Sequence record: AY753669.1
Source: Escherichia phage D6
Length of the DNA stretch: 7,644 nt
Strand: one strand, 5' to 3'
In this document: positions 1-7,644 of the stretch, piece by piece
Numbering within the stretch: position 1 is the stretch's first letter
How the letters are laid out: every line of letters begins with the position of its first letter
Notes under the pieces: model-generated
The model's database searches: none
Told to the model about the DNA's origin: nothing
The model's input: the letters and a program-made list of their open reading frames with translations, nothing else
Made by a program: the position numbers and the translations under genes

Positions 1-5
1 TAGTA

Positions 6-263
6 ATGACCACCAGGGGGATGAGGGTTAGATTTCGCTGGAAAGCAGAGCAAGTAACGCCATTCAGAGAGCCATCAATGCCGCTGCAGGTTGAGCAGGA
101 TTATCTATGTTTACCAGAAATAGATGGAGGAATGCTGGTGGAGTCTGATGGTAGTAAGGCTGATTTTGAAGCCAATTTGAAGCTGGCACAGGCCGTAATC
201 AATAGTTATCGCGGAAAGTGGATCGCAAAAGTGAAACATGTTGTTCGTTTGTCTCGCTGGTAG
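6..263 (+). CDS. hypothetical protein, probably the 3' end of a gene that starts upstream of the window
   Basis: 85-codon ORF in the supplied track; the frame stays open to the window edge (no in-frame stop upstream of the ATG at 6), so the true start may lie outside. No motif recognised. Confidence 0.35.
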   Translation: MTTRGMRVRFRWKAEQVTPFREPSMPLQVEQDYLCLPEIDGGMLVESDGSKADFEANLKLAQAVINSYRGKWIAKVKHVVRLSRW

Positions 264-279
264 CATTAGGTATTTAATA

Positions 280-295
280 TTAATTTTCTAATACA
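280..295 (+). promoter_or_regulatory. copy 1 of a recurring 16-bp AT-rich motif (TTAATTTTCTAATACA); candidate repressor operator upstream of the 130-aa ORF
   Basis: Seen in sequence: 14/16 identical to the copy at 6123..6138 and 13/16 to the copy at 4713..4728, all in the same orientation and all in intergenic DNA just outside gene ends. Operator function is inference. Confidence 0.4.
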
Positions 296-371
296 ATCAT
301 CTTTTTACCAGTCTATACAGTTTTAACATTCTCATTATCATCCCCTCGGTCATTTCCTGCCCGGGGGATTA

Positions 372-764
372 ATGGAACAAATCAGCAGCGCAGAAATTGC
401 GGATATCATGATCAGGGCTGACTGCTATCTGACAGTCACTGAAATTACCACTCTCGCCAAAGAAAAATACCCTCATCTCCATGTTTCACGAGTAAGTGTA
501 ACTAACATCATTCGTCATTTTGTTCGTTCAAGCAGGGCAATCTGTGAGCTGGATGATCGTGTGTATCCACGAAAATACTGGCTACATGGTCTGAACGGAT
601 ATCAGTTCAAGGTGCGCGGGCGCACGCCTGAATACGGTAGCTTACTGGTTAAAAACTGTAGCAGGAAATCAGTCGAACAGGCGCGAAAAGAGCAACGAGA
701 GCTGGTGGACATGGCGAATAAGCTGTGGAATGCCGCCGTTAAAAAGCGTGGTGTTGCTTTATGA
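372..764 (+). CDS. hypothetical small basic protein, translationally coupled to pacA; positional counterpart of the P1 late-promoter activator gene lpa (unverified)
   Basis: 130-codon ORF; GGGGGA Shine-Dalgarno-like sequence 5 nt upstream of the ATG; its TGA stop (762..764) overlaps the pacA ATG (761..763) as ATGA. The lpa suggestion rests only on my recollection of P1 gene order, not on sequence similarity. Confidence 0.6.
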   Translation: MEQISSAEIADIMIRADCYLTVTEITTLAKEKYPHLHVSRVSVTNIIRHFVRSSRAICELDDRVYPRKYWLHGLNGYQFKVRGRTPEYGSLLVKNCSRKSVEQARKEQRELVDMANKLWNAAVKKRGVAL

Positions 765-2125
765 GTCTGGTTAATTGGGAGGAGCACCGCGCCCGCTTTA
801 TAGCGTTGCGTGAAGAAAAAGGGATCACTGTAAAGGAATACTGTGAGGAGCATGGCCTTAGCTTCAATACAGCCAGAAAGCATCTCAATATGAAAAAAAA
901 TGAGGTGCGGTCGCAGGTAAAGACAACAAAAAAAAGCACCAAATCACCTGAAAAAAAACGGGCGGGAAGAGCAACAAAAAAGCTGGAAGAGGGTGCAGAA
1001 AAAACAAAATTTACAGAAATTGACAATTCGCAGGGTGCAGGTTCTTTCCGAAGTATGCCAAGAAAGAAAACTTCGGATCATGAAAGTAATACCAATAATA
1101 ACAATGAGATAAAAGAATCTGTCAGGAGATCATTGCGCGAAAAAATGGCGAAAATGATCCCCGAAGAAGATAAAAGCGCCCCAAAAATTGAGGGATCTTC
1201 AGCAATGATCCCTGGCGGTGCTGTGCAGCGTGCCACATTGCCCACTACGAATGTGGCTCGCGATATGATGAAGAACGGCGCAGAAGAACACCTGCGGTTA
1301 GCAATTCAAATGGCGCAAGAGCGCGCACTTCAGTATCAAAGCATTGTTGATCAGGAGGCCGAACGTCTACAGGCGGAAATAGACGCCTTGGGCGATAAAG
1401 AGCCAGAAGGAATGCACCCTGGGCAGCGCCTTCTCGGTCTAATCAGTGACGCGGCCTACTACATGAATGATTTTATCAGTAGGTTGGCAGCTATATATCA
1501 GTCCGAACAAAAGCTGCGACAGGGGGATGAAAAGCTTCGTCAGAGCGCTCGCCAGCAAGCATTCAAAGAGGCTGAGGCCAGAGAAAAACTCGAATTAGCA
1601 CGCCTACAGGCCGAACAGCGTGGCAAAGAGATTGAATATCGCATTGGCGCTGACGCACGCGCTGCCAGAGTTATCGCCGCCGCTATACGTATGCGTGAGC
1701 GCGAGGAACTGGATGATATCGGTGTTGCTGAATACATCGAGCGCCAGGGGGTCAGCGTCCCGGCTATCCTCGCGGCGCGCGCGGCGAAAGCTATCACTCT
1801 TCTCGAACCACCTGTTTCTGACGTCAATGATGTTGATGATGAACAGCTGGACAAAGAGGCGAGGGAGTTTGCGACGCTTCAGGCTAACCATCCGCAATGG
1901 CTGGCAGAGCGCCGGGCGGATGTGGCAACCATTGTTGAAGAATTGGGGTGCGGAGATTACGACCGCAATGGCGAGCGTAAAGCTGGAGAATTCGAGGCCA
2001 ACGACGAAGAGCTGGATATTGACCCTTCGGCAACGGCTGATATTTACGGTGATTATGATGCATCTGATGCAGGGTATGACGCCGGAGATGATGATATCGC
2101 GATAGAACCGCCGGAGGATGATTAA
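761..2125 (+). CDS. pacA: terminase small subunit / pac-site recognition protein (PacA-like)
   Basis: 454-codon ORF immediately upstream of and overlapping (TAATG) the large-terminase gene. N-terminus (MSLVNWEEHRARFIALREEKGITVKEYCEEHGLSFNTARKHL) looks like a helix-turn-helix DNA-binding domain, followed by a Lys-rich low-complexity linker and a strongly acidic C-terminal tail (..DDDIAIEPPEDD), as expected for a small terminase. Contains a GATC-hexamer cluster (see 1075..1211). The P1 pacA assignment is by synteny and domain logic. Confidence 0.7.
   Translation: MSLVNWEEHRARFIALREEKGITVKEYCEEHGLSFNTARKHLNMKKNEVRSQVKTTKKSTKSPEKKRAGRATKKLEEGAEKTKFTEIDNSQGAGSFRSMPRKKTSDHESNTNNNNEIKESVRRSLREKMAKMIPEEDKSAPKIEGSSAMIPGGAVQRATLPTTNVARDMMKNGAEEHLRLAIQMAQERALQYQSIVDQEAERLQAEIDALGDKEPEGMHPGQRLLGLISDAAYYMNDFISRLAAIYQSEQKLRQGDEKLRQSARQQAFKEAEAREKLELARLQAEQRGKEIEYRIGADARAARVIAAAIRMREREELDDIGVAEYIERQGVSVPAILAARAAKAITLLEPPVSDVNDVDDEQLDKEAREFATLQANHPQWLAERRADVATIVEELGCGDYDRNGERKAGEFEANDEELDIDPSATADIYGDYDASDAGYDAGDDDIAIEPPEDD
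1075..1211. other. candidate pac (packaging cleavage) site: cluster of five GATC-containing hexamers inside the 5' third of pacA
   Basis: Seen in sequence: GATC at 1076, 1128, 1156, 1194 and 1207, i.e. five in about 135 bp, where chance predicts well under one. Hexamers read TGATCC (1155..1160 and 1206..1211 on top; 1075..1080 on bottom), TGATCT (1127..1132 bottom) and AGATCC (1193..1198 bottom). Established knowledge: the P1 pac site lies inside pacA and consists of repeated Dam-methylatable TGATCA/G hexamers flanking the cleavage point. Assignment here is by analogy. Confidence 0.35.
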
Positions 2126-3633
2126 TGGCTGGAGGGCGCAAGATTAAATGCGTCACCAGCGATCCACGCTGGCGCGATATGGTAATCAAATACCGCTACA
2201 ACTTTACCCAAGCTGTTGTCGATATTTTTGGGATGTTCCCCTCCCACCAGCAGCAGCAGATCATTCAGTCCGTGCAGGAAACGGGGAGTAGGACGACCGT
2301 CACGTCCGGACACGGAACGGGGAAGTCGTCCCTTACCGCGATGTTGCTGTTGATTTTCATGATCCTGTTCCCCGATGCCCGTGTCATCATTGTTGCTAAC
2401 AAGATAGGCCAGGTAAAAACAGGCGTATTCAAATACGTTAAACAGTATTGGGCGAATGCAGTTAAGCGTCATGGGTGGTTGCAGACCTATTTTGTCCTCT
2501 CTGACACCATGTTTTATGAGCGCTCCCGTAAGGGGATTTGGGAAGTTCTCTGCAAAGGTTATCGACTCGGCAACGAAGAAGCGCTGGCGGGGGAACACGC
2601 GGCACATTTGCTTCTAATTCTGGATGAAGCATCTGGTATATCTGATAAGGCGATCGGCGTAATGACCGGTGCTCTTACTGAAGAAGATAACCGGATGTTG
2701 ATGCTATCCCAGCCAACAAGGCCAAGTGGTTATTTCTACGATTCGCACCATTCTCAAGCAAAAACCCCAGACAACCCGAAAGGGATCTGGACAGCAATTG
2801 TTCTTAACTCGGAAGAATCACCGTTCGTCACACCACAATTCATCAAGCAGAAGCTTCTGGAATATGGCGGGCGCGATTCTATTGAGTACATGGTCAAGGT
2901 GCTTGGTCAGTTCCCACGAGAAATTAACGGCTATTTGCTTGGTCGTGATGAATGCGATCGCGCTGCTCGCCGCAAGGTGTTGTTGGAGAAAAACTGGGGA
3001 TGGGTGGCAACGGCTGACGTTGGTAATGGGCGAGATAAGTCGGTCCTCAACATCTGCAAGGTATCAGGTCACAGGGATAAGCGGCGCGTTGTTAACTTTA
3101 AGGTAATGGAGATGTCTGGCACTATGGACCCATTGGCCTTTGCTGACTTCATATATAACGAATGTACGCCGGAAAAATACCCGAATATAACAATCGCGGT
3201 TGATGCTGATGGTTTTGGTTCTGATACGTGTGCGCAGTTGGTGCGTCGTGGTGCGAACCCGGTACGTATTCGGTGGGGAAAACCCATGTTTGCGAACAAA
3301 GACAGGGAGCGATTTGTTAATCAGCGTGCCTACGCAAATATTATGGCGCGTGATGCCATAAAGTCAGGGCGTATGCGGATAGACAGTGACCCTAAAACGG
3401 CAGAGCAAGCGTCAAAAATCCCCTTTTTACTGAATGAAGAAGGGAAAATGGCGATGATGCGCAAAGAGCACATGCGGCAAAAGCTAAACATCAAATCGCC
3501 TGACCGATGGGATACCTACTGCTTCACTATGCTGGTGGACTATGTGCCTGCTAATGAAGATATTGGTGCCGAAATGGCAACTTTCCGAGATCAGGTTCTG
3601 GCGGATATCGAAATGCCGGATCTGGATATATAA
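2125..3633 (+). CDS. pacB: terminase large subunit (PacB-like; ATPase plus nuclease)
   Basis: 502-codon ORF. Walker A-like P-loop (VTSGHGTGKSSL) and Walker B-like hydrophobic stretch ending in DE (LLLILDEASG) in the N-terminal half; acidic nuclease-type segments in the C-terminal half (IAVDADGFGSD). Start overlaps the pacA stop (TAATG). Confidence 0.85.
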   Translation: MAGGRKIKCVTSDPRWRDMVIKYRYNFTQAVVDIFGMFPSHQQQQIIQSVQETGSRTTVTSGHGTGKSSLTAMLLLIFMILFPDARVIIVANKIGQVKTGVFKYVKQYWANAVKRHGWLQTYFVLSDTMFYERSRKGIWEVLCKGYRLGNEEALAGEHAAHLLLILDEASGISDKAIGVMTGALTEEDNRMLMLSQPTRPSGYFYDSHHSQAKTPDNPKGIWTAIVLNSEESPFVTPQFIKQKLLEYGGRDSIEYMVKVLGQFPREINGYLLGRDECDRAARRKVLLEKNWGWVATADVGNGRDKSVLNICKVSGHRDKRRVVNFKVMEMSGTMDPLAFADFIYNECTPEKYPNITIAVDADGFGSDTCAQLVRRGANPVRIRWGKPMFANKDRERFVNQRAYANIMARDAIKSGRMRIDSDPKTAEQASKIPFLLNEEGKMAMMRKEHMRQKLNIKSPDRWDTYCFTMLVDYVPANEDIGAEMATFRDQVLADIEMPDLDI

Positions 3634-3634
3634 A

Positions 3635-3651
3635 GCCCCGCGATGCGGGGC
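3635..3651. terminator. hairpin between the convergent pacB and 345-aa genes; possible bidirectional intrinsic terminator
   Basis: Perfect 7-bp stem GCCCCGC / GCGGGGC with a 3-nt loop (GAT), directly after the pacB stop and directly after the stop of the - strand gene (3661). There is a T/A-rich run on the - strand side (TTATATAT) but no clean U-tract on the + side. Confidence 0.45.
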
Positions 3652-3660
3652 CGGTTGTGA

Positions 3661-4698
3661 TTACCAGAGCTTCGCGGCGTACTGCGTTTGGGGGAATGTG
3701 TATCCGTAACGTTCTTCGATTGCTTTGCCGTATTTTTTACGAGCTTCATTCAGTTTAATGCCGGTCAGGTCGTCTCCAGAGGCCATCATTACGTCTAACA
3801 ATTCCAGATCCATTTTATCCAGCCTTGCCATTGCTTCACGTGATGTACGTATCTTACGCTCAATGATATGGCGAATAGCCGGATCGGCATCCTCCAGCAT
3901 CTTAGCGGATTTCTGCTTAAGGCTTTCATTGCGAATATCGATGTTCCTTAAGATGTACGACTTCGCAACGTAGCTTGGCTGGTGTTTTTCCAGGTCACGA
4001 ACACGATATAAGTTAAAATCGCCGAGAAGGCTGCAAGGTACCGATTCGACGCCAGAATAAATTGTAATGCTCCGGCGTTCACCAACATTATTGACAACGG
4101 GGATCGTTGTCTTCGGTAGTCTTGCGAAAACCAATGCGCCATGTGCGCCAACTCTAAAGCGAGAAAGGGCATTGCTGCCTTCGATGTTTGTTGTCAGCAC
4201 AACATCTGTATATGCCTCTTTACGCGCCCGGTAGATCTCGCCTTCAGGCTCAGCTTCAAAGAAGCGCTGTTCTTCTTCAAGAGCACCTACGATTTGAGAA
4301 AAAACCCTATTTTTCAGGCTTTTCTTTATGATTTTGTCGTATTTTTTTAGCAATTGTTCACGTGTAAATGTACGTGTTGTTGTAGCGCTTTGCACAACGA
4401 CATGCGTGCTTTGATTGGTGTCCTCAATGATGAATGGGATCGGAGAATATACAGACTCAACAATGTTCGACGCTTTGCCGTCGGCATCGCGGCACATGTC
4501 AACGAAGGCTTTCCATTCAGCAAGACATTTTTCAGCTTCTTCTAATATGTTTTGGTCATGCGTTAATGCAACATGGCGGAATTCCTCGCCAGCATAACTG
4601 GTATCATGGAAAACAGAGTTTGCGACCACCAGCTCTTTCCACCGTTCAGCGGTTTGCAGGAACCGTTTGTACTCTTTCTCGATCGACTTCTTACTCAT
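3661..4698 (-). CDS. c1: 345-aa protein at the immC position; putative C1-type immunity repressor by synteny (function unverified)
   Basis: Long - strand ORF convergent with pacB and divergent from the recombinase; AGGA Shine-Dalgarno-like sequence a few nt upstream of the ATG. In P1 the gene between pacB and loxP-cre is c1. I see no motif that proves repressor function, so CDS existence is about 0.85 and the C1 identity about 0.4. Confidence 0.55.
   Translation of the reverse strand: MSKKSIEKEYKRFLQTAERWKELVVANSVFHDTSYAGEEFRHVALTHDQNILEEAEKCLAEWKAFVDMCRDADGKASNIVESVYSPIPFIIEDTNQSTHVVVQSATTTRTFTREQLLKKYDKIIKKSLKNRVFSQIVGALEEEQRFFEAEPEGEIYRARKEAYTDVVLTTNIEGSNALSRFRVGAHGALVFARLPKTTIPVVNNVGERRSITIYSGVESVPCSLLGDFNLYRVRDLEKHQPSYVAKSYILRNIDIRNESLKQKSAKMLEDADPAIRHIIERKIRTSREAMARLDKMDLELLDVMMASGDDLTGIKLNEARKKYGKAIEERYGYTFPQTQYAAKLW
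3807..3885. repeat. 79-bp GATC-bounded segment inside the 345-aa gene that recurs in inverted orientation at 7309..7387 and 7566..7644
   Basis: Seen in sequence: the reverse complement of 3807..3885 is identical, base for base, to 7309..7387. It begins and ends with GATC. Confidence 0.9.
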
Positions 4699-4712
4699 TA
4701 TTCCTACTCGAT

Positions 4713-4728
4713 TTAGTTTTCTAACATA
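4713..4728 (+). promoter_or_regulatory. copy 2 of the 16-bp motif (TTAGTTTTCTAACATA); candidate operator in the leader of the 345-aa gene
   Basis: 13/16 identical to the copies at 280..295 and 6123..6138; lies 15 to 30 bp upstream of the - strand gene start. Confidence 0.4.
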
Positions 4729-4797
4729 AAATTACTATGACAAATTTATGTCGAATAACAGAGTGAGTAAAGGATCGAACTGTGATTTTTTGTCATC

Positions 4798-4813
4798 AAT
4801 TTTAGAAAACCAA
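4798..4813 (-). promoter_or_regulatory. copy 3 of the 16-bp motif, weaker and inverted (reads TTGGTTTTCTAAAATT on the - strand)
   Basis: Shares the TTTTCTAA core; 13/16 to the degenerate consensus TTA[AG][TA]TTTCTAA[CT]A[CT]A; about 70 bp from copy 2 in the same intergenic region. Confidence 0.3.
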
Positions 4814-4908
4814 CCGTAGAAACCACACTTCGCTAATTAAAGACCATGAAGGCAACGTGTTACTGGTCATCATCAATCTATGATGGATTAAAAAAAATCG
4901 GCATTTTA

Positions 4909-4940
4909 TAACTTTAAATAATTGGCATTATTTAAAGTTA
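4909..4940. other. rox: rox site: 32-bp recombination target of Dre (14-bp perfect inverted arms around a 4-bp asymmetric spacer)
   Basis: Seen in sequence: TAACTTTAAATAAT-TGGC-ATTATTTAAAGTTA. This is the exact reverse complement of the rox site as I recall it (TAACTTTAAATAATGCCAATTATTTAAAGTTA). Including the flanking A at 4908, one arm matches the loxP arm ATAACTTCGTATA at 10/13 positions. It lies about 150 bp upstream of the recombinase gene. Confidence 0.85.
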
Positions 4941-4949
4941 GGCTATAAT
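4922..4949 (+). promoter_or_regulatory. candidate sigma70 promoter reading toward the recombinase gene, overlapping rox
   Basis: -35 TTGGCA (4922..4927, spanning the rox spacer), 16-bp spacer, perfect -10 TATAAT (4944..4949). Established knowledge: P1 cre has multiple promoters in the loxP-proximal region. Activity is not demonstrated. Confidence 0.4.
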
Positions 4950-5092
4950 CATGTGTAGATGAACAGTATTGACATCACTGAAAATACGTACCTCCAATCA
5001 AAGGCTTGTATTTTGAAAATTAACTTATAGCTACCCTGTCATTTTTATATTTTTCGCGTAGCGTCATCTGTATATAGAGGTGAAATGGTTTC

Positions 5093-6121
5093 ATGAGTGA
5101 ATTAATTATCTCTGGCAGTTCCGGTGGTTTTCTGCGCAACATTGGCAAAGAGTACCAGGAAGCCGCAGAAAACTTTATGCGGTTCATGAATGATCAGGGT
5201 GCTTATGCGCCGAATACTCTGCGCGACCTCCGGTTGGTGTTTCATTCCTGGGCGCGCTGGTGTCACGCTCGCCAGCTTGCCTGGTTTCCGATCTCACCAG
5301 AAATGGCCCGCGAGTATTTTCTTCAGTTGCATGATGCCGATCTGGCTTCGACCACCATTGATAAGCACTACGCCATGCTTAACATGCTGCTTTCTCATTG
5401 TGGCCTTCCGCCACTTTCGGATGATAAAAGTGTTTCTCTGGCTATGCGGCGTATCCGGCGCGAAGCGGCAACGGAAAAAGGCGAACGAACAGGCCAGGCT
5501 ATACCGCTGCGATGGGACGACCTGAAACTGCTCGACGTCCTGTTGTCCAGGTCAGAACGGCTGGTGGACCTGCGCAACCGGGCTTTTCTCTTTGTTGCAT
5601 ACAATACGCTGATGCGTATGTCGGAAATCTCGCGTATTCGTGTAGGAGATCTGGACCAAACAGGTGACACTGTCACGCTACATATTTCACACACGAAGAC
5701 AATAACGACCGCCGCCGGGCTTGATAAGGTGCTTTCCCGTCGCACTACTGCTGTGCTGAATGACTGGCTGGATGTTTCCGGGCTTCGTGAACATCCTGAC
5801 GCGGTGCTGTTCCCGCCGATACACCGTAGCAATAAGGCCAGGATTACGACAACGCCCCTTACTGCACCTGCAATGGAGAAAATATTCAGCGACGCCTGGG
5901 TGTTGCTGAATAAAAGGGATGCCACGCCAAACAAAGGGAGATACCGGACGTGGACCGGGCATAGTGCTCGTGTCGGGGCCGCTATCGATATGGCTGAAAA
6001 GCAGGTGTCTATGGTGGAGATTATGCAGGAAGGAACCTGGAAGAAACCGGAAACACTTATGCGGTATCTGCGCCGTGGCGGTGTGTCTGTGGGGGCTAAT
6101 AGCCGCTTGATGGATTCATAA
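5093..6121 (+). CDS. dre: Dre, a Cre-family tyrosine site-specific recombinase (rox-specific)
   Basis: 342-codon ORF, GAGGTG Shine-Dalgarno-like sequence about 9 nt upstream. Clear Cre-like sequence throughout (e.g. SVSLAMRRIRRE, RNRAFLFVAYNTLMRMSEISRIRVGDL, TGHSARVGAAIDMA, EIMQEGTWKKPETLMRYLRR), with the Cre catalytic Arg, His-x-x-Arg, Trp and Tyr positions conserved. The N-terminus MSELIISGSS and the adjacent exact rox site identify it as Dre rather than Cre. Confidence 0.9.
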   Translation: MSELIISGSSGGFLRNIGKEYQEAAENFMRFMNDQGAYAPNTLRDLRLVFHSWARWCHARQLAWFPISPEMAREYFLQLHDADLASTTIDKHYAMLNMLLSHCGLPPLSDDKSVSLAMRRIRREAATEKGERTGQAIPLRWDDLKLLDVLLSRSERLVDLRNRAFLFVAYNTLMRMSEISRIRVGDLDQTGDTVTLHISHTKTITTAAGLDKVLSRRTTAVLNDWLDVSGLREHPDAVLFPPIHRSNKARITTTPLTAPAMEKIFSDAWVLLNKRDATPNKGRYRTWTGHSARVGAAIDMAEKQVSMVEIMQEGTWKKPETLMRYLRRGGVSVGANSRLMDS

Positions 6122-6122
6122 A

Positions 6123-6138
6123 TTAAATTTCTAACACA
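6123..6138 (+). promoter_or_regulatory. copy 4 of the 16-bp motif (TTAAATTTCTAACACA); candidate operator between dre and the downstream operon
   Basis: Begins 2 bp after the dre stop codon, about 55 bp upstream of the next ORF; 14/16 identical to copy 1. Confidence 0.4.
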
Positions 6139-6194
6139 TCTTTTTAGATTGATATCTTTGCTGTAAAGTACCCTCGCCTATTTTGGAGGGTGCT

Positions 6195-6539
6195 TTGCAG
6201 AGTCAAATCACGGAATCAAGACGCTTCACGGTGGATGGTTACACCGTAACCTTCGCCGCTGGTGTTAAGAACAGTCATGCTGTCGTTGTATTCGGCATCA
6301 TGACCGGGCTTGAGGCCGTCCCTGTGTTTACCCTCGAAAAAAACTGGCGAAATCTGGAGGAAGCAGAAAGCTACGTCCGGAAAGTAACCATCATTGCCGC
6401 CGAAAAACTCCTGGCCCACTATCAGGAAAATTATCGCACTATGGTCGAGAAGATTAATCTCGCTTTCACTCGCCCCACTACCGGCTTTATTGCACCGGAT
6501 ACTAATGCAGGTCGATATCCGGCAAGGGGGCGTCGGTGA
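6195..6539 (+). CDS. hypothetical protein (about 114 to 118 aa), first gene of a small operon downstream of dre
   Basis: ORF in the track from 6183. There is no in-frame ATG near the 5' end; the TTG at 6195 is preceded by GGAGGG (6185..6190) at good spacing, so I place the start there (alternatives: TTG 6183, GTG 6231). Its stop overlaps the GTG start of the next ORF (GTGA at 6536..6539). No recognisable motif. Confidence 0.5.
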   Translation: MQSQITESRRFTVDGYTVTFAAGVKNSHAVVVFGIMTGLEAVPVFTLEKNWRNLEEAESYVRKVTIIAAEKLLAHYQENYRTMVEKINLAFTRPTTGFIAPDTNAGRYPARGRR

Positions 6540-7012
6540 AAACTTATTACCCATCTCTGAATTGTTACCCGTCTTCCTATCCAGGATTGTCCGGGAAGCT
6601 GTTAGCTCTATTAGCTAAAGCACCTACGGAATGGTTTAAGCCAGTCGTTATCAATCCACACTTCCTGGATTACGGATCTGTTCGCACTCGTAACGAACTC
6701 AAAAACCTACTGGCGCATGGATTCATTCGACACCGTGCCGGTAAAGGCTATCAGTTATCGATTGCGCCAGAAGAGGCCGTGCGGCTATTCGCATATCGTG
6801 ACAGCCAGACAAAAGCTCGGGTAATAGCTCAAATACTTCATAACGGCAGCACCTATGCCCGCCAGTTTGGCGGCGACACGTCGCAGTTCTTGCGGGCGGT
6901 GCGATCGCTGGAGGAGCAAGGAGTTATTGAAAGTTCCTGTCTTCCTGTTCCAACCGTTCCACATATCAAACGTCGGGTTTACACCTTCACGCAGAGAGCT
7001 AAAAAACAATGA
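6536..7012 (+). CDS. hypothetical protein (158 aa), GTG start, translationally coupled both upstream and downstream
   Basis: ORF in the track; GTGA overlap with the previous ORF and ATGA overlap (7009..7012) with the dUTPase-like gene. Composition is protein-like; no motif recognised with confidence. Confidence 0.55.
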   Translation: MKTYYPSLNCYPSSYPGLSGKLLALLAKAPTEWFKPVVINPHFLDYGSVRTRNELKNLLAHGFIRHRAGKGYQLSIAPEEAVRLFAYRDSQTKARVIAQILHNGSTYARQFGGDTSQFLRAVRSLEEQGVIESSCLPVPTVPHIKRRVYTFTQRAKKQ

Positions 7013-7455
7013 TTTACGTAAAAGTGAAACGCCTACATCCGGCAGCAAAACTTCCAGCTTATGCCACCTCCGGATCGGCGGCGATGGATTTTGAGGCTGT
7101 TGAAATAAAACCATGTGTCGATAGCAATGGTGCAATTTCCTCAAGCTGGTGGGTGTACACCGGATTGGCTATGGAGATCCCGCCCGGCTGGTGTCTGAAA
7201 CTCTATCCGCGATCCGGATTGGGCTGCAAAAAACATACTCGCCTGGCTAACTGCGTAGGAATTATCGACTCCGATTATCGCGGCGAAATCATGGCAAAAC
7301 TGATTACTGATCCGGCTATTCGCCATATCATTGAGCGTAAGATACGTACATCACGTGAAGCAATGGCAAGGCTGGATAAAATGGATCTGCAATTTCCTCA
7401 AGCTGGTGGGTGTACACCGGATTGGCTATGGAGATCCCGCCCGGCTGGTGTCTGA
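7009..7455 (+). CDS. dut: dUTPase-family gene (trimeric dUTPase motifs I-III) whose 3' part is replaced or disrupted after codon 100
   Basis: N-terminal 100 aa carry dUTPase hallmarks: ..LPAYATSGSAAMDF.. (motif I region), YPRSGLG (motif II), GIIDSDYRGE (motif III). Motifs IV and V are absent. From 7309 the reading frame runs into the inverted 79-bp copy of the 345-aa gene fragment (reading DPAIRHIIERKIRTSREAMARLDKMDL) and then into an out-of-frame second copy of dut sequence, ending at 7455. The 148-aa ORF as drawn is therefore chimeric; it may be a pseudogene or an artefact. Confidence 0.55.
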   Translation: MIYVKVKRLHPAAKLPAYATSGSAAMDFEAVEIKPCVDSNGAISSSWWVYTGLAMEIPPGWCLKLYPRSGLGCKKHTRLANCVGIIDSDYRGEIMAKLITDPAIRHIIERKIRTSREAMARLDKMDLQFPQAGGCTPDWLWRSRPAGV

Positions 7456-7644
7456 AACTCTATCCGCGATCCGGATTGGGCTGCAAAAAACATACTCGCC
7501 TGGCTAACTGCGTAGGAATTATCGACTCCGATTATCGCGGCGAAATCATGGCAAAACTGATTACTGATCCGGCTATTCGCCATATCATTGAGCGTAAGAT
7601 ACGTACATCACGTGAAGCAATGGCAAGGCTGGATAAAATGGATC
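7131..7644. repeat. perfect tandem direct duplication, 2 x 257 bp (7131..7387 and 7388..7644), ending exactly at the window edge
   Basis: Seen in sequence: the two copies are identical base for base. Each copy is 178 bp of dut coding sequence plus the 79-bp inverted fragment of the 345-aa gene. The identical antisense 61-aa ORFs at 7141..7326 and 7398..7583 in the track are a by-product. Confidence 0.9.
7309..7387. repeat. inverted copy of 3807..3885 (79 bp, GATC-bounded); a second identical copy lies at 7566..7644
   Basis: Exact reverse-complement identity to 3807..3885, verified by hand. Confidence 0.9.

Follow-up and report, generated by a model that had tools for sequence, protein, structure and literature searches.

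The stretch of Escherichia phage D6 DNA considered here (record AY753669.1; all 7,644 nucleotides were analysed and are called the window below) carries pacA and pacB, homologues of the two pacase genes of phage P1, and the 5′ third of its pacA contains a cluster of five GATC sites. In all likelihood, positions 1072–1214 of the window, possibly starting from about 1007, are the D6 pac recognition region, located where pacA codes for a probably disordered linker of the protein. A preliminary description of the sequence had interpreted the cluster as a candidate pac site, and this interpretation was supported, since every computational test able to contradict it turned out in its favor. The points in its favor are the conservation of the sites, their occurrence in the same pacA segment across PacA lineages including P1, signs of selection at the DNA level, a phage-encoded Dam gene, the synteny with P1, and the distance to the recombination site rox. 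The D6 site very probably belongs to the class of P1-type pac sites, with a different repeat consensus and without the upstream arm seen in its relatives.

Between positions 1–4924 of the window and the reverse-complemented positions 1–4924 of MF356679, the complete, circular genome of Escherichia phage D6 (91,159 bp), identity is 100%, and window positions 4925–7316 match the opposite end of that record. The element of reference is the P1 pac site, which comprises 161 bp (161–162) inside pacA with seven TGATCA/G repeats and an IHF site and is under methylation control; the synonymous destruction of its repeats lowered the phage titre 9-fold (PMC10028697). P1 needs Dam methylation at pac (PMC12707154), and pac is cleaved only when its GATC repeats are methylated, with PacA, PacB and IHF or HU being needed (PMC10028697; PMC12707154; Skorupski et al. 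1994 as cited in PMC7969092).

The GATC repeats of D6 pacA

The five sites that the preliminary description had counted are at window positions 1076, 1128, 1156, 1194 and 1207 and span 135 bp at pacA offsets 316–450 of 1365, i.e., in the 5′ third of the gene, as had been stated. The three TGATCC hexamers that it had listed were recovered at 1155–1160 and 1206–1211 on the plus strand and at 1075–1080 on the minus strand (top strand GGATCA), and the remaining two hexamers read AGATCA (1127–1132) and GGATCT (1193–1198). Its placement of the sites on both strands around position 1143 was right as well: GGAGATCATT (1125–1134) and AATGATCCCC (1153–1162) form an inverted pair centred at 1143.5. The GATC-to-GATC spacings are 52, 28, 38 and 13 bp, making a single compound cluster.

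The repeat unit had been likened to the TGATCA/G hexamer of P1, and this part of the proposal held only in that the repeats are centred on GATC; the P1-like hexamer was replaced by an asymmetric 10-mer, AAWGATCCCC, arranged in inverted pairs. This consensus was derived from 59 sites in 10 D6-type genes, in which the three positions before GATC are A (44), A (47) and T (43, with A in 15) and the three positions after it are C (54, 44 and 38). The base directly following GATC is thus C in 54/59 D6-type sites, whereas it is A or G in 17/17 P1-type sites and never C. In the P1-type sites, T precedes GATC; the repeat of the Serratia type is GTGATCAC. GATC is the invariant core of three otherwise differing repeat types (P1, Serratia and D6).

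A position weight matrix (PWM) of the repeat was built from the relatives, with D6 left out, and scanned over the entire D6 genome. The top match of the genome was 1152–1163 (18.2 bits), and four of the 15 best matches were in 5′ pacA, namely 1124–1135, 1152–1163, 1203–1214 and a more distal site at 819–830. The repeats and the elements near them are as follows, with PWM scores where they apply.

1072–1083, minus strand: repeat 1, GATC at 1076–1079, top strand TTCGGATCATGA, with TGATCC on the minus strand; 6.3 bits
1124–1135, minus strand: repeat 2, GATC at 1128–1131, top strand AGGAGATCATTG, the left half of the conserved inverted pair; 11.4 bits
1152–1163, plus strand: repeat 3, GATC at 1156–1159, AAATGATCCCCG, the best copy; 18.2 bits
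1190–1201, minus strand: repeat 4, GATC at 1194–1197, top strand GAGGGATCTTCA; 10.7 bits
1203–1214, plus strand: repeat 5, GATC at 1207–1210, CAATGATCCCTG; 13.9 bits
819–830, minus strand: distal repeat-like site, GATC at 823–826, top strand AAGGGATCACTG, repeat-like GGGATCAC, in the part of pacA that encodes the putative helix-turn-helix; 12.7 bits
1007–1026, plus strand: conserved island, AATTTACAGAAATTGACAAT, upstream of the cluster
1099–1111, plus strand: AT-rich spacer element, TAACAATGAGATA, a weak IHF-like candidate

Repeat 1 is kept in the D6, L008 and L010 clades (relatives are given by their locus numbers) and is missing from the more distant lineages. Repeat 5 corresponds, as an ortholog, to the “>” site 63 bp past the inverted pair in L011, L095, L096, L099 and L100; its distance in D6 is 51 bp because of a 12-nt deletion. 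The sequence AATGATCCC recurs at 1204–1212, and its two copies, both within the cluster, are the only ones on either strand of the 91-kb D6 genome. The distal site at 819–830 was found in the D6, L008 and L010 clades, which are those lacking an upstream arm; its membership in the cluster is uncertain, and a conserved G-I-T peptide could by itself explain its conservation.

The island is conserved as AAYTTACAAA..YTGACA, synonymous third positions included, in D6, L008, L010, L011, L095, L096, L099 and L100. It is kept although the surrounding linker is otherwise unalignable, and relatives with two arms have it in the interval separating them. It is possibly a further component of pac, e.g., a host-factor site or the cleavage region. 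The spacer between the GATCs at 1076 and 1128 is an AT-rich trough (26.7% GC at 1060–1119), in which TAACAATGAGATA matches the annotated P1 IHF site AAACAAAGAGTTA at 10/13 positions and is two mismatches away from the consensus WATCAANNNNTTR; the relatives read TAACAGTGAGTTA at this element. For the P1 cleavage sequence GTTGTCAG, a reverse-complement match, CTGACAA, was seen in the island of L008 and L011, but was dropped as a probable coincidence, as D6 reads TTGACAA there and L034 and the Serratia group are without it. Two contigs of the same IMG genome (2537562191), L031 at its 3′ end and L026 at its 5′ end, break at the equivalent of about 1080–1090, just to the right of the first GATC, with a 10-bp overlap ATGAAAATAA. 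This anecdotal observation is the only hint of a cut here; such a break may simply arise during assembly where the DNA is AT-rich, or it may be the trace of a physical end.

Conservation and selection on the DNA

The cluster is the densest group of GATC sites in the D6 genome at all widths from 100 to 300 bp, the runner-up having three per 136 bp. Five sites per 136 bp were nevertheless reached in 108/2000 dinucleotide shuffles of the window and in 90/300 shuffles of the whole genome, and with random placement the P value was 0.13 (window) or 0.29 (genome). When the target was the pre-specified 455 nt that make up the 5′ third of pacA, P was 0.0014. It is conservation and the family-wide pattern described below, rather than the count, that argue for a non-random cluster. 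As a side observation, the sole other spot in the D6 genome with three TGATCC/GATCCC sites so close together (within 160 bp) is at about 30485–30603 of the record, in the hdf/lydB region (L003).

The D6-like pacA genes were drawn from plasmids and IMG/VR contigs, the most diverged of them having about 67% nucleotide identity and the closest 100%. D6 was compared with L008, L009, L027 and L010 over pacA nt 190–470, four genes of one clade that amount essentially to one independent comparison. The bases of the GATC cores were identical in 20/20 cases, against 56–58% of the other 261 nt (Fisher P = 2–3e-5), and the 9-mers around the GATCs were identical at 40–42/45 positions (P = 1e-5 to 5e-8), while the amino acids were the same at 34–36/94 positions. 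The GATCs in the rest of pacA were not conserved among the D6-like genes. At two of the sites, the codon toggles between GGA and AGA (Gly/Arg) with GATC being retained; repeat 4, for example, has GGA in D6 and AGA in the relatives.

Both orientations and all three codon phases are represented among the D6-type sites, whose encoded peptides are DH, GS(F/L), GII, (M/K)IP, DP and RSP; selection therefore acts on the DNA and not on the peptide. Where the flanks were fixed as AW....CC, the core was GATC 34 times, compared with five times for all one-mismatch cores combined.

More distant PacA loci were gathered by a pattern search and by a protein search with contig look-up, which led to a set of 12 lineages: P1, a 395-aa P1 variant, the Serratia group, two D6 clades, Enterobacter (L011/L028), Klebsiella (L099), L095, L096, L100, L097 and L098. 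The identity of their PacA proteins with that of D6 goes down to 37–38% in the D6-type lineages and is 21% for P1. All 12 have 5–9 GATC sites in pacA nt 140–520, where 0.9–1.8 would be expected from the flanking 4–8 kb (Poisson P from 0.04 to 1e-5), and few elsewhere. P1 served as a positive control: over the 56.8 kb of P1 examined, GATC sites are most densely clustered at its experimentally mapped pac, with seven per 160 bp and a maximum of three elsewhere, and the densest-cluster criterion thus recovers the known site.

The P1 hexamers are at pacA offsets 195–229 and 325–376, with the annotated IHF site at 256–268 and the annotated cuts at 276–285. In the D6 superfamily, the downstream cluster is orthologous and consists of the inverted pair GGGATCATT-N19-AAWGATCCC followed by the “>” copy 63 bp further. 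The GATC spacing within the inverted pair is 28 bp in D6, L008, L010, L011, L095, L096 and L099, and 27 bp in L100. L011, L095, L096, L099 and L100 have, in addition, an upstream arm of two to three repeats at pacA offsets of about 157–240, resulting in a P1-like two-arm layout. The D6, L008 and L010 clades retain the island and carry two additional sites, one at offset 316 (window 1076) and one at offset 434 (window 1194).

These data make it scarcely credible that there is no DNA element and that chance, together with conserved PacA peptides (MIP, DH and GS), accounts for the GATCs. Such an explanation would be in keeping with the weak significance of the counts (P = 0.05–0.13 for the window and 0.3 for the genome) and with the “>” sites encoding mostly (M/K)-I-P in one codon phase, but the same motif is found in both orientations, in three phases and over unrelated peptides, and the enrichment extends to 12/12 lineages with unrelated linker sequences. 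Moreover, amino acids change while GATC is kept, in a predicted disordered linker that has 34–36/94 residues identical between clades.

Gene order, packaging proteins and methylase

The genes and sites of the window that bear on packaging are the following.

372–764: lpa, from the open reading frame and the MF356679 annotation
761–2125, plus strand: pacA, 454 aa, 1365 nt, a divergent homologue of P1 pacA, annotated in MF356679 as terminase “similar to P1 gene pacA”
2125–3633, plus strand: pacB, encoding the large subunit of the pacase (terminase), which presumably acts as nuclease and motor
minus strand: the 345-aa gene, annotated as a C1-like prophage repressor
4909–4940, no strand assigned: rox, the target of Dre, TAACTTTAAATAATTGGCATTATTTAAAGTTA, with half-sites annotated at the ends of MF356679
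5093–6121: dre, from the open reading frame and the MF356679 annotation

The D6 order lpa-pacA-pacB-c1-rox-dre is collinear with lpa-pacA-pacB-c1-lox-cre of P1. In P1, packaging runs from pac towards lox, and the distance from the pac cut (90806) to the centre of lox (94800) is 3.99 kb; in D6, rox is 3.78 kb downstream of the centre of the GATC cluster. The D6 geometry, with the same gene order, therefore fits a P1-type pac, which has a recombination site a few kb downstream. Between lpa and pacA the two phages differ, with the D6 pacA start overlapping the lpa stop (ATGA, window 761–764) and P1 having an 85-bp gap that contains the late promoter LPpac; because of the overlap, D6 has no intergenic room for such a promoter.

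A second alternative is that the cluster is a conserved cis element sensitive to Dam or SeqA with a function outside packaging, i.e., in the timing of pacA/pacB expression, in replication or in segregation, and that the true pac is elsewhere. GATC clusters do also mark origins and Dam-regulated promoters, the P1 cre regulatory region has three annotated Dam sites, and, by our own reasoning, site pairs 13 and 28 bp apart would suit SeqA binding. Against this, no sigma-70-like promoter was found in window 700–1500, the terminator-like matches of the scan were trivial, and there was no Rfam match. The element is always in the same pacA segment as the mapped pac of P1, in 12 lineages, and is co-inherited with pacA/pacB, and no other GATC cluster of similar density exists in the D6 genome that could serve as an alternative pac. 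We regard this alternative as improbable. The D6 replication genes are away from the cluster, with repL at 21331–22293 and a repA-like gene at 45841–46596 of the record.

The D6 PacB protein is 56% identical to that of P1 over 488 aa and has a weak match to Terminase_6N (E 7.8e-4, below the Pfam cut-off). PacA is far more diverged, at 20–24% identity (20% by BLASTP, E 2e-9), with blocks common to both phages at the N-terminus, W-(D/E)-(D/E)-H...NTAR, and at the C-terminus, AE(Y/F)IE..G..VP. When D6 PacA was compared by tblastn with the phage collection, D6 alone matched, P1 being too diverged. The AlphaFold model of PacA (mean predicted local distance difference test, pLDDT, 69; predicted template modelling score, pTM, 0.28) has a three-helix bundle at residues 6–42, pLDDT values below 50 at 47–118 and 132–160, and long helices from 163 onwards. 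The repeats are encoded by codons 106–150, inside or beside the stretches with pLDDT below 50, so that in this model they probably fall in a disordered linker, a place in which a DNA element can be accommodated. A profile search of PacA against the PDB returned a homeobox match that was judged spurious.

D6_63 (orf63) is a Dam-family adenine methyltransferase (TIGR00571, 249 bits with a cut-off of 115; PF02086, E 2e-56). In L004, this stand-alone Dam-family gene is at 11635–12540 on the minus strand, with the adjacent orf64 at 12533–13213 on the same strand; orf64 is annotated as a cytosine methylase and had no Pfam or NCBIfam match. A note in MF356679 limits the similarity of orf63 to the C-terminal half of P1 dmt, and the single dmt gene of P1 may thus span functions that are split in D6.

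The presence of this enzyme bears on a third alternative, in which the cluster is indeed pac, with GATC being merely part of the sequence read by PacA and adenine methylation having either no regulatory role or one of opposite sign to that in P1. The D6-type repeat is a longer, asymmetric 10-mer with much information in its flanks, so that its recognition need not depend on methyl groups, and the sites are fewer and more widely spaced than those of P1. This possibility is nonetheless rather unlikely: GATC is invariant in three differing repeat types and near-miss cores are rare, and drift has affected the flanks but spared GATC, the pattern that a requirement for Dam methylation predicts. D6 also has its own Dam-family gene, as P1 does (PMC12707154).

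A model of D6 packaging

By analogy with P1, we infer Dam control, binding by PacA, a position of cleavage, a direction of packaging and the inclusion of rox in the terminal redundancy. In such a model, the pacase would bind the five AAWGATCCCC-type repeats, with PacA, through its N-terminal helix-turn-helix-like bundle, as the presumed DNA-recognition subunit and PacB as the nuclease and motor. Binding and cleavage would need N6-adenine methylation of the GATC cores, provided by the host Dam and the phage Dam-family enzyme, and hemimethylated, newly replicated copies would be spared. A single cut would be made in or beside the cluster. From there, headful packaging would proceed through pacB and c1 in the direction of rox. 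A P1 headful amounts to about 112% of the genome (PMC10999674); if D6 packs likewise, rox would be present at each terminally redundant end of the first headful, and Dre could circularise this DNA, which would need a redundancy of at least 3.8 kb.

Several findings weigh against the assignment of the cluster as pac. The count-based statistics are not significant by themselves (P about 0.05–0.13 for the window and about 0.3 for the genome). The upstream arm was not found in the D6, L008 and L010 clades, so that D6 lacks the two-arm layout of the P1 type, and no match to the IHF consensus WATCAANNNNTTR with one mismatch or fewer was found in D6. In the rare natural variants L018 and L030, one site each is lost, and individual sites are thus dispensable. 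The annotation of MF356679 gives the rox and cix sites with pac being absent. A Foldseek search with the PacA model returned no significant match, with only weak helix-turn-helix-like local alignments, all with E >0.5, and the GATC specificity of D6_63 is assumed from its membership in the family.

The proposal that the cluster is the D6 pac would, if correct, define a packaging signal for D6 and for the D6-like phage-plasmids that are common in E. coli, Salmonella and Shigella. Such a signal is needed for D6 phagemids and transducing vectors, for predicting cross-packaging with P1, and for judging the generalised transduction of resistance genes. Three repeat types with GATC alone in common would also be comparative support for the P1-family pacase sensing Dam methylation and not merely sequence.

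A broader idea, to which we give somewhat less than even credence, is that the packaging-specificity groups of the P1-family pacases are set by the flanks of the invariant GATC (TGATCA/G in P1, GTGATCAC in Serratia and AAWGATCCCC in the D6 superfamily), and that the D6 clade has a natural one-armed pac that lost its upstream arm and still packages. If this were true, the two-arm, IHF-bent architecture of P1 would not be obligatory, and the D6-like phage-plasmids would be full P1-style headful packagers capable of generalised transduction, despite being surveyed as having no pacA.

According to that survey of phage-plasmids, homologues of pacB alone are encoded by the D6-related subgroup P1-g2 (PMC7969092). 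The missing pacA is a sensitivity artefact, PacA being present but highly diverged, and the picture of a D6 subgroup with pacB and without pacA is corrected accordingly. Full-text literature searches found no paper on a D6 pac; key P1 and D6 papers were outside their coverage, so that an earlier description is possible.

Other features of the window

The sequence TTTCTAAYAYA occurs exactly three times in the window (285–295, 4718–4728 and 6128–6138), where 0.6 occurrences would be expected. The copies are upstream of lpa, just upstream of the start of the c1-like gene, and after dre, in parallel with the C1 operators Olpa and Oc1 of P1, and the operator of the D6 repressor probably has this motif as its core.

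In 5′ pacA there are runs of eight A residues at 893–900, 930–937, 953–960 and in their neighborhood. At this region, L006 and L007 show frameshifts or a split annotation, and many database entries for “DNA pacase A subunit” are truncated, at about 290–326 aa; the frameshifts and short entries are probably homopolymer sequencing errors or mis-called starts.

Positions 7309–7644 of the window are not collinear with the complete D6 genome. Segments 7309–7394 and 7566–7644 match an inverted piece of c1 that is bounded by GATC sites (record 1040–1125), and 7388–7644 is an exact second copy of 7131–7387. Every junction sits at a GATC site, which gives the 3′ end of the window the appearance of a chimera from Sau3AI cloning. 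The rearrangement truncates the dUTPase open reading frame and adds spurious GATCs to the count for the window.

Comparison with known systems

GATC clusters are known from the E. coli oriC and the P1 oriR, which bind SeqA when hemimethylated and whose methylation state changes after replication. The D6 cluster resembles them in its high local density of Dam sites, and differs in being located inside pacA, in having a longer, asymmetric repeat, and in being co-inherited with pacA/pacB.

In P22 (gene 3) and SPP1 (gene 1), pac is inside the gene of the small terminase subunit and headful packaging is unidirectional. The packaging signal is thus likewise in the gene of the DNA-recognition subunit, as predicted for D6. 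Unlike the D6 cluster, the P22 and SPP1 pac sites are free of GATC repeats; they are not controlled by methylation, and the small terminase subunits of these phages show no sequence relationship to PacA.

The phage-plasmid and metagenome loci of Enterobacter, Klebsiella and Raoultella (L011, L028 and L095–L100) share with D6 the 10-mer, the downstream cluster and the island. Their pac-like regions carry the upstream arm, whereas D6, L008 and L010 have instead the additional sites at offset 316 and offset 434.

The closest comparison is with P1, in which four hexamers are followed by the IHF site, staggered cuts over about 10 bp, and three hexamers. As in P1, the D6 site is in the 5′ third of the homologous pacA, immediately upstream of pacB, and its location fits a P1-type pac. 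It is made up of five short repeats with an invariant GATC core, which are conserved in diverged relatives, in a poorly conserved stretch encoding a linker, and D6 likewise encodes a Dam-family methylase and has the same orientation to the recombination site, at 3.8 kb (rox) versus 4.0 kb (lox). Unlike P1, D6 has five sites instead of seven or eight, and they are paired in inverted orientation, with 28 bp separating the members of one conserved pair. D6 is without the two tight arms (four and three repeats) that in P1 flank a repeat-free centre of about 90 bp, in which cleavage occurs, and without a clear IHF consensus. The D6 cluster is the expected homologue of the classical P1 element and not a surprise or a new kind of biology; what is modestly new is the variant repeat, the logic of the inverted pairs and the missing arm.

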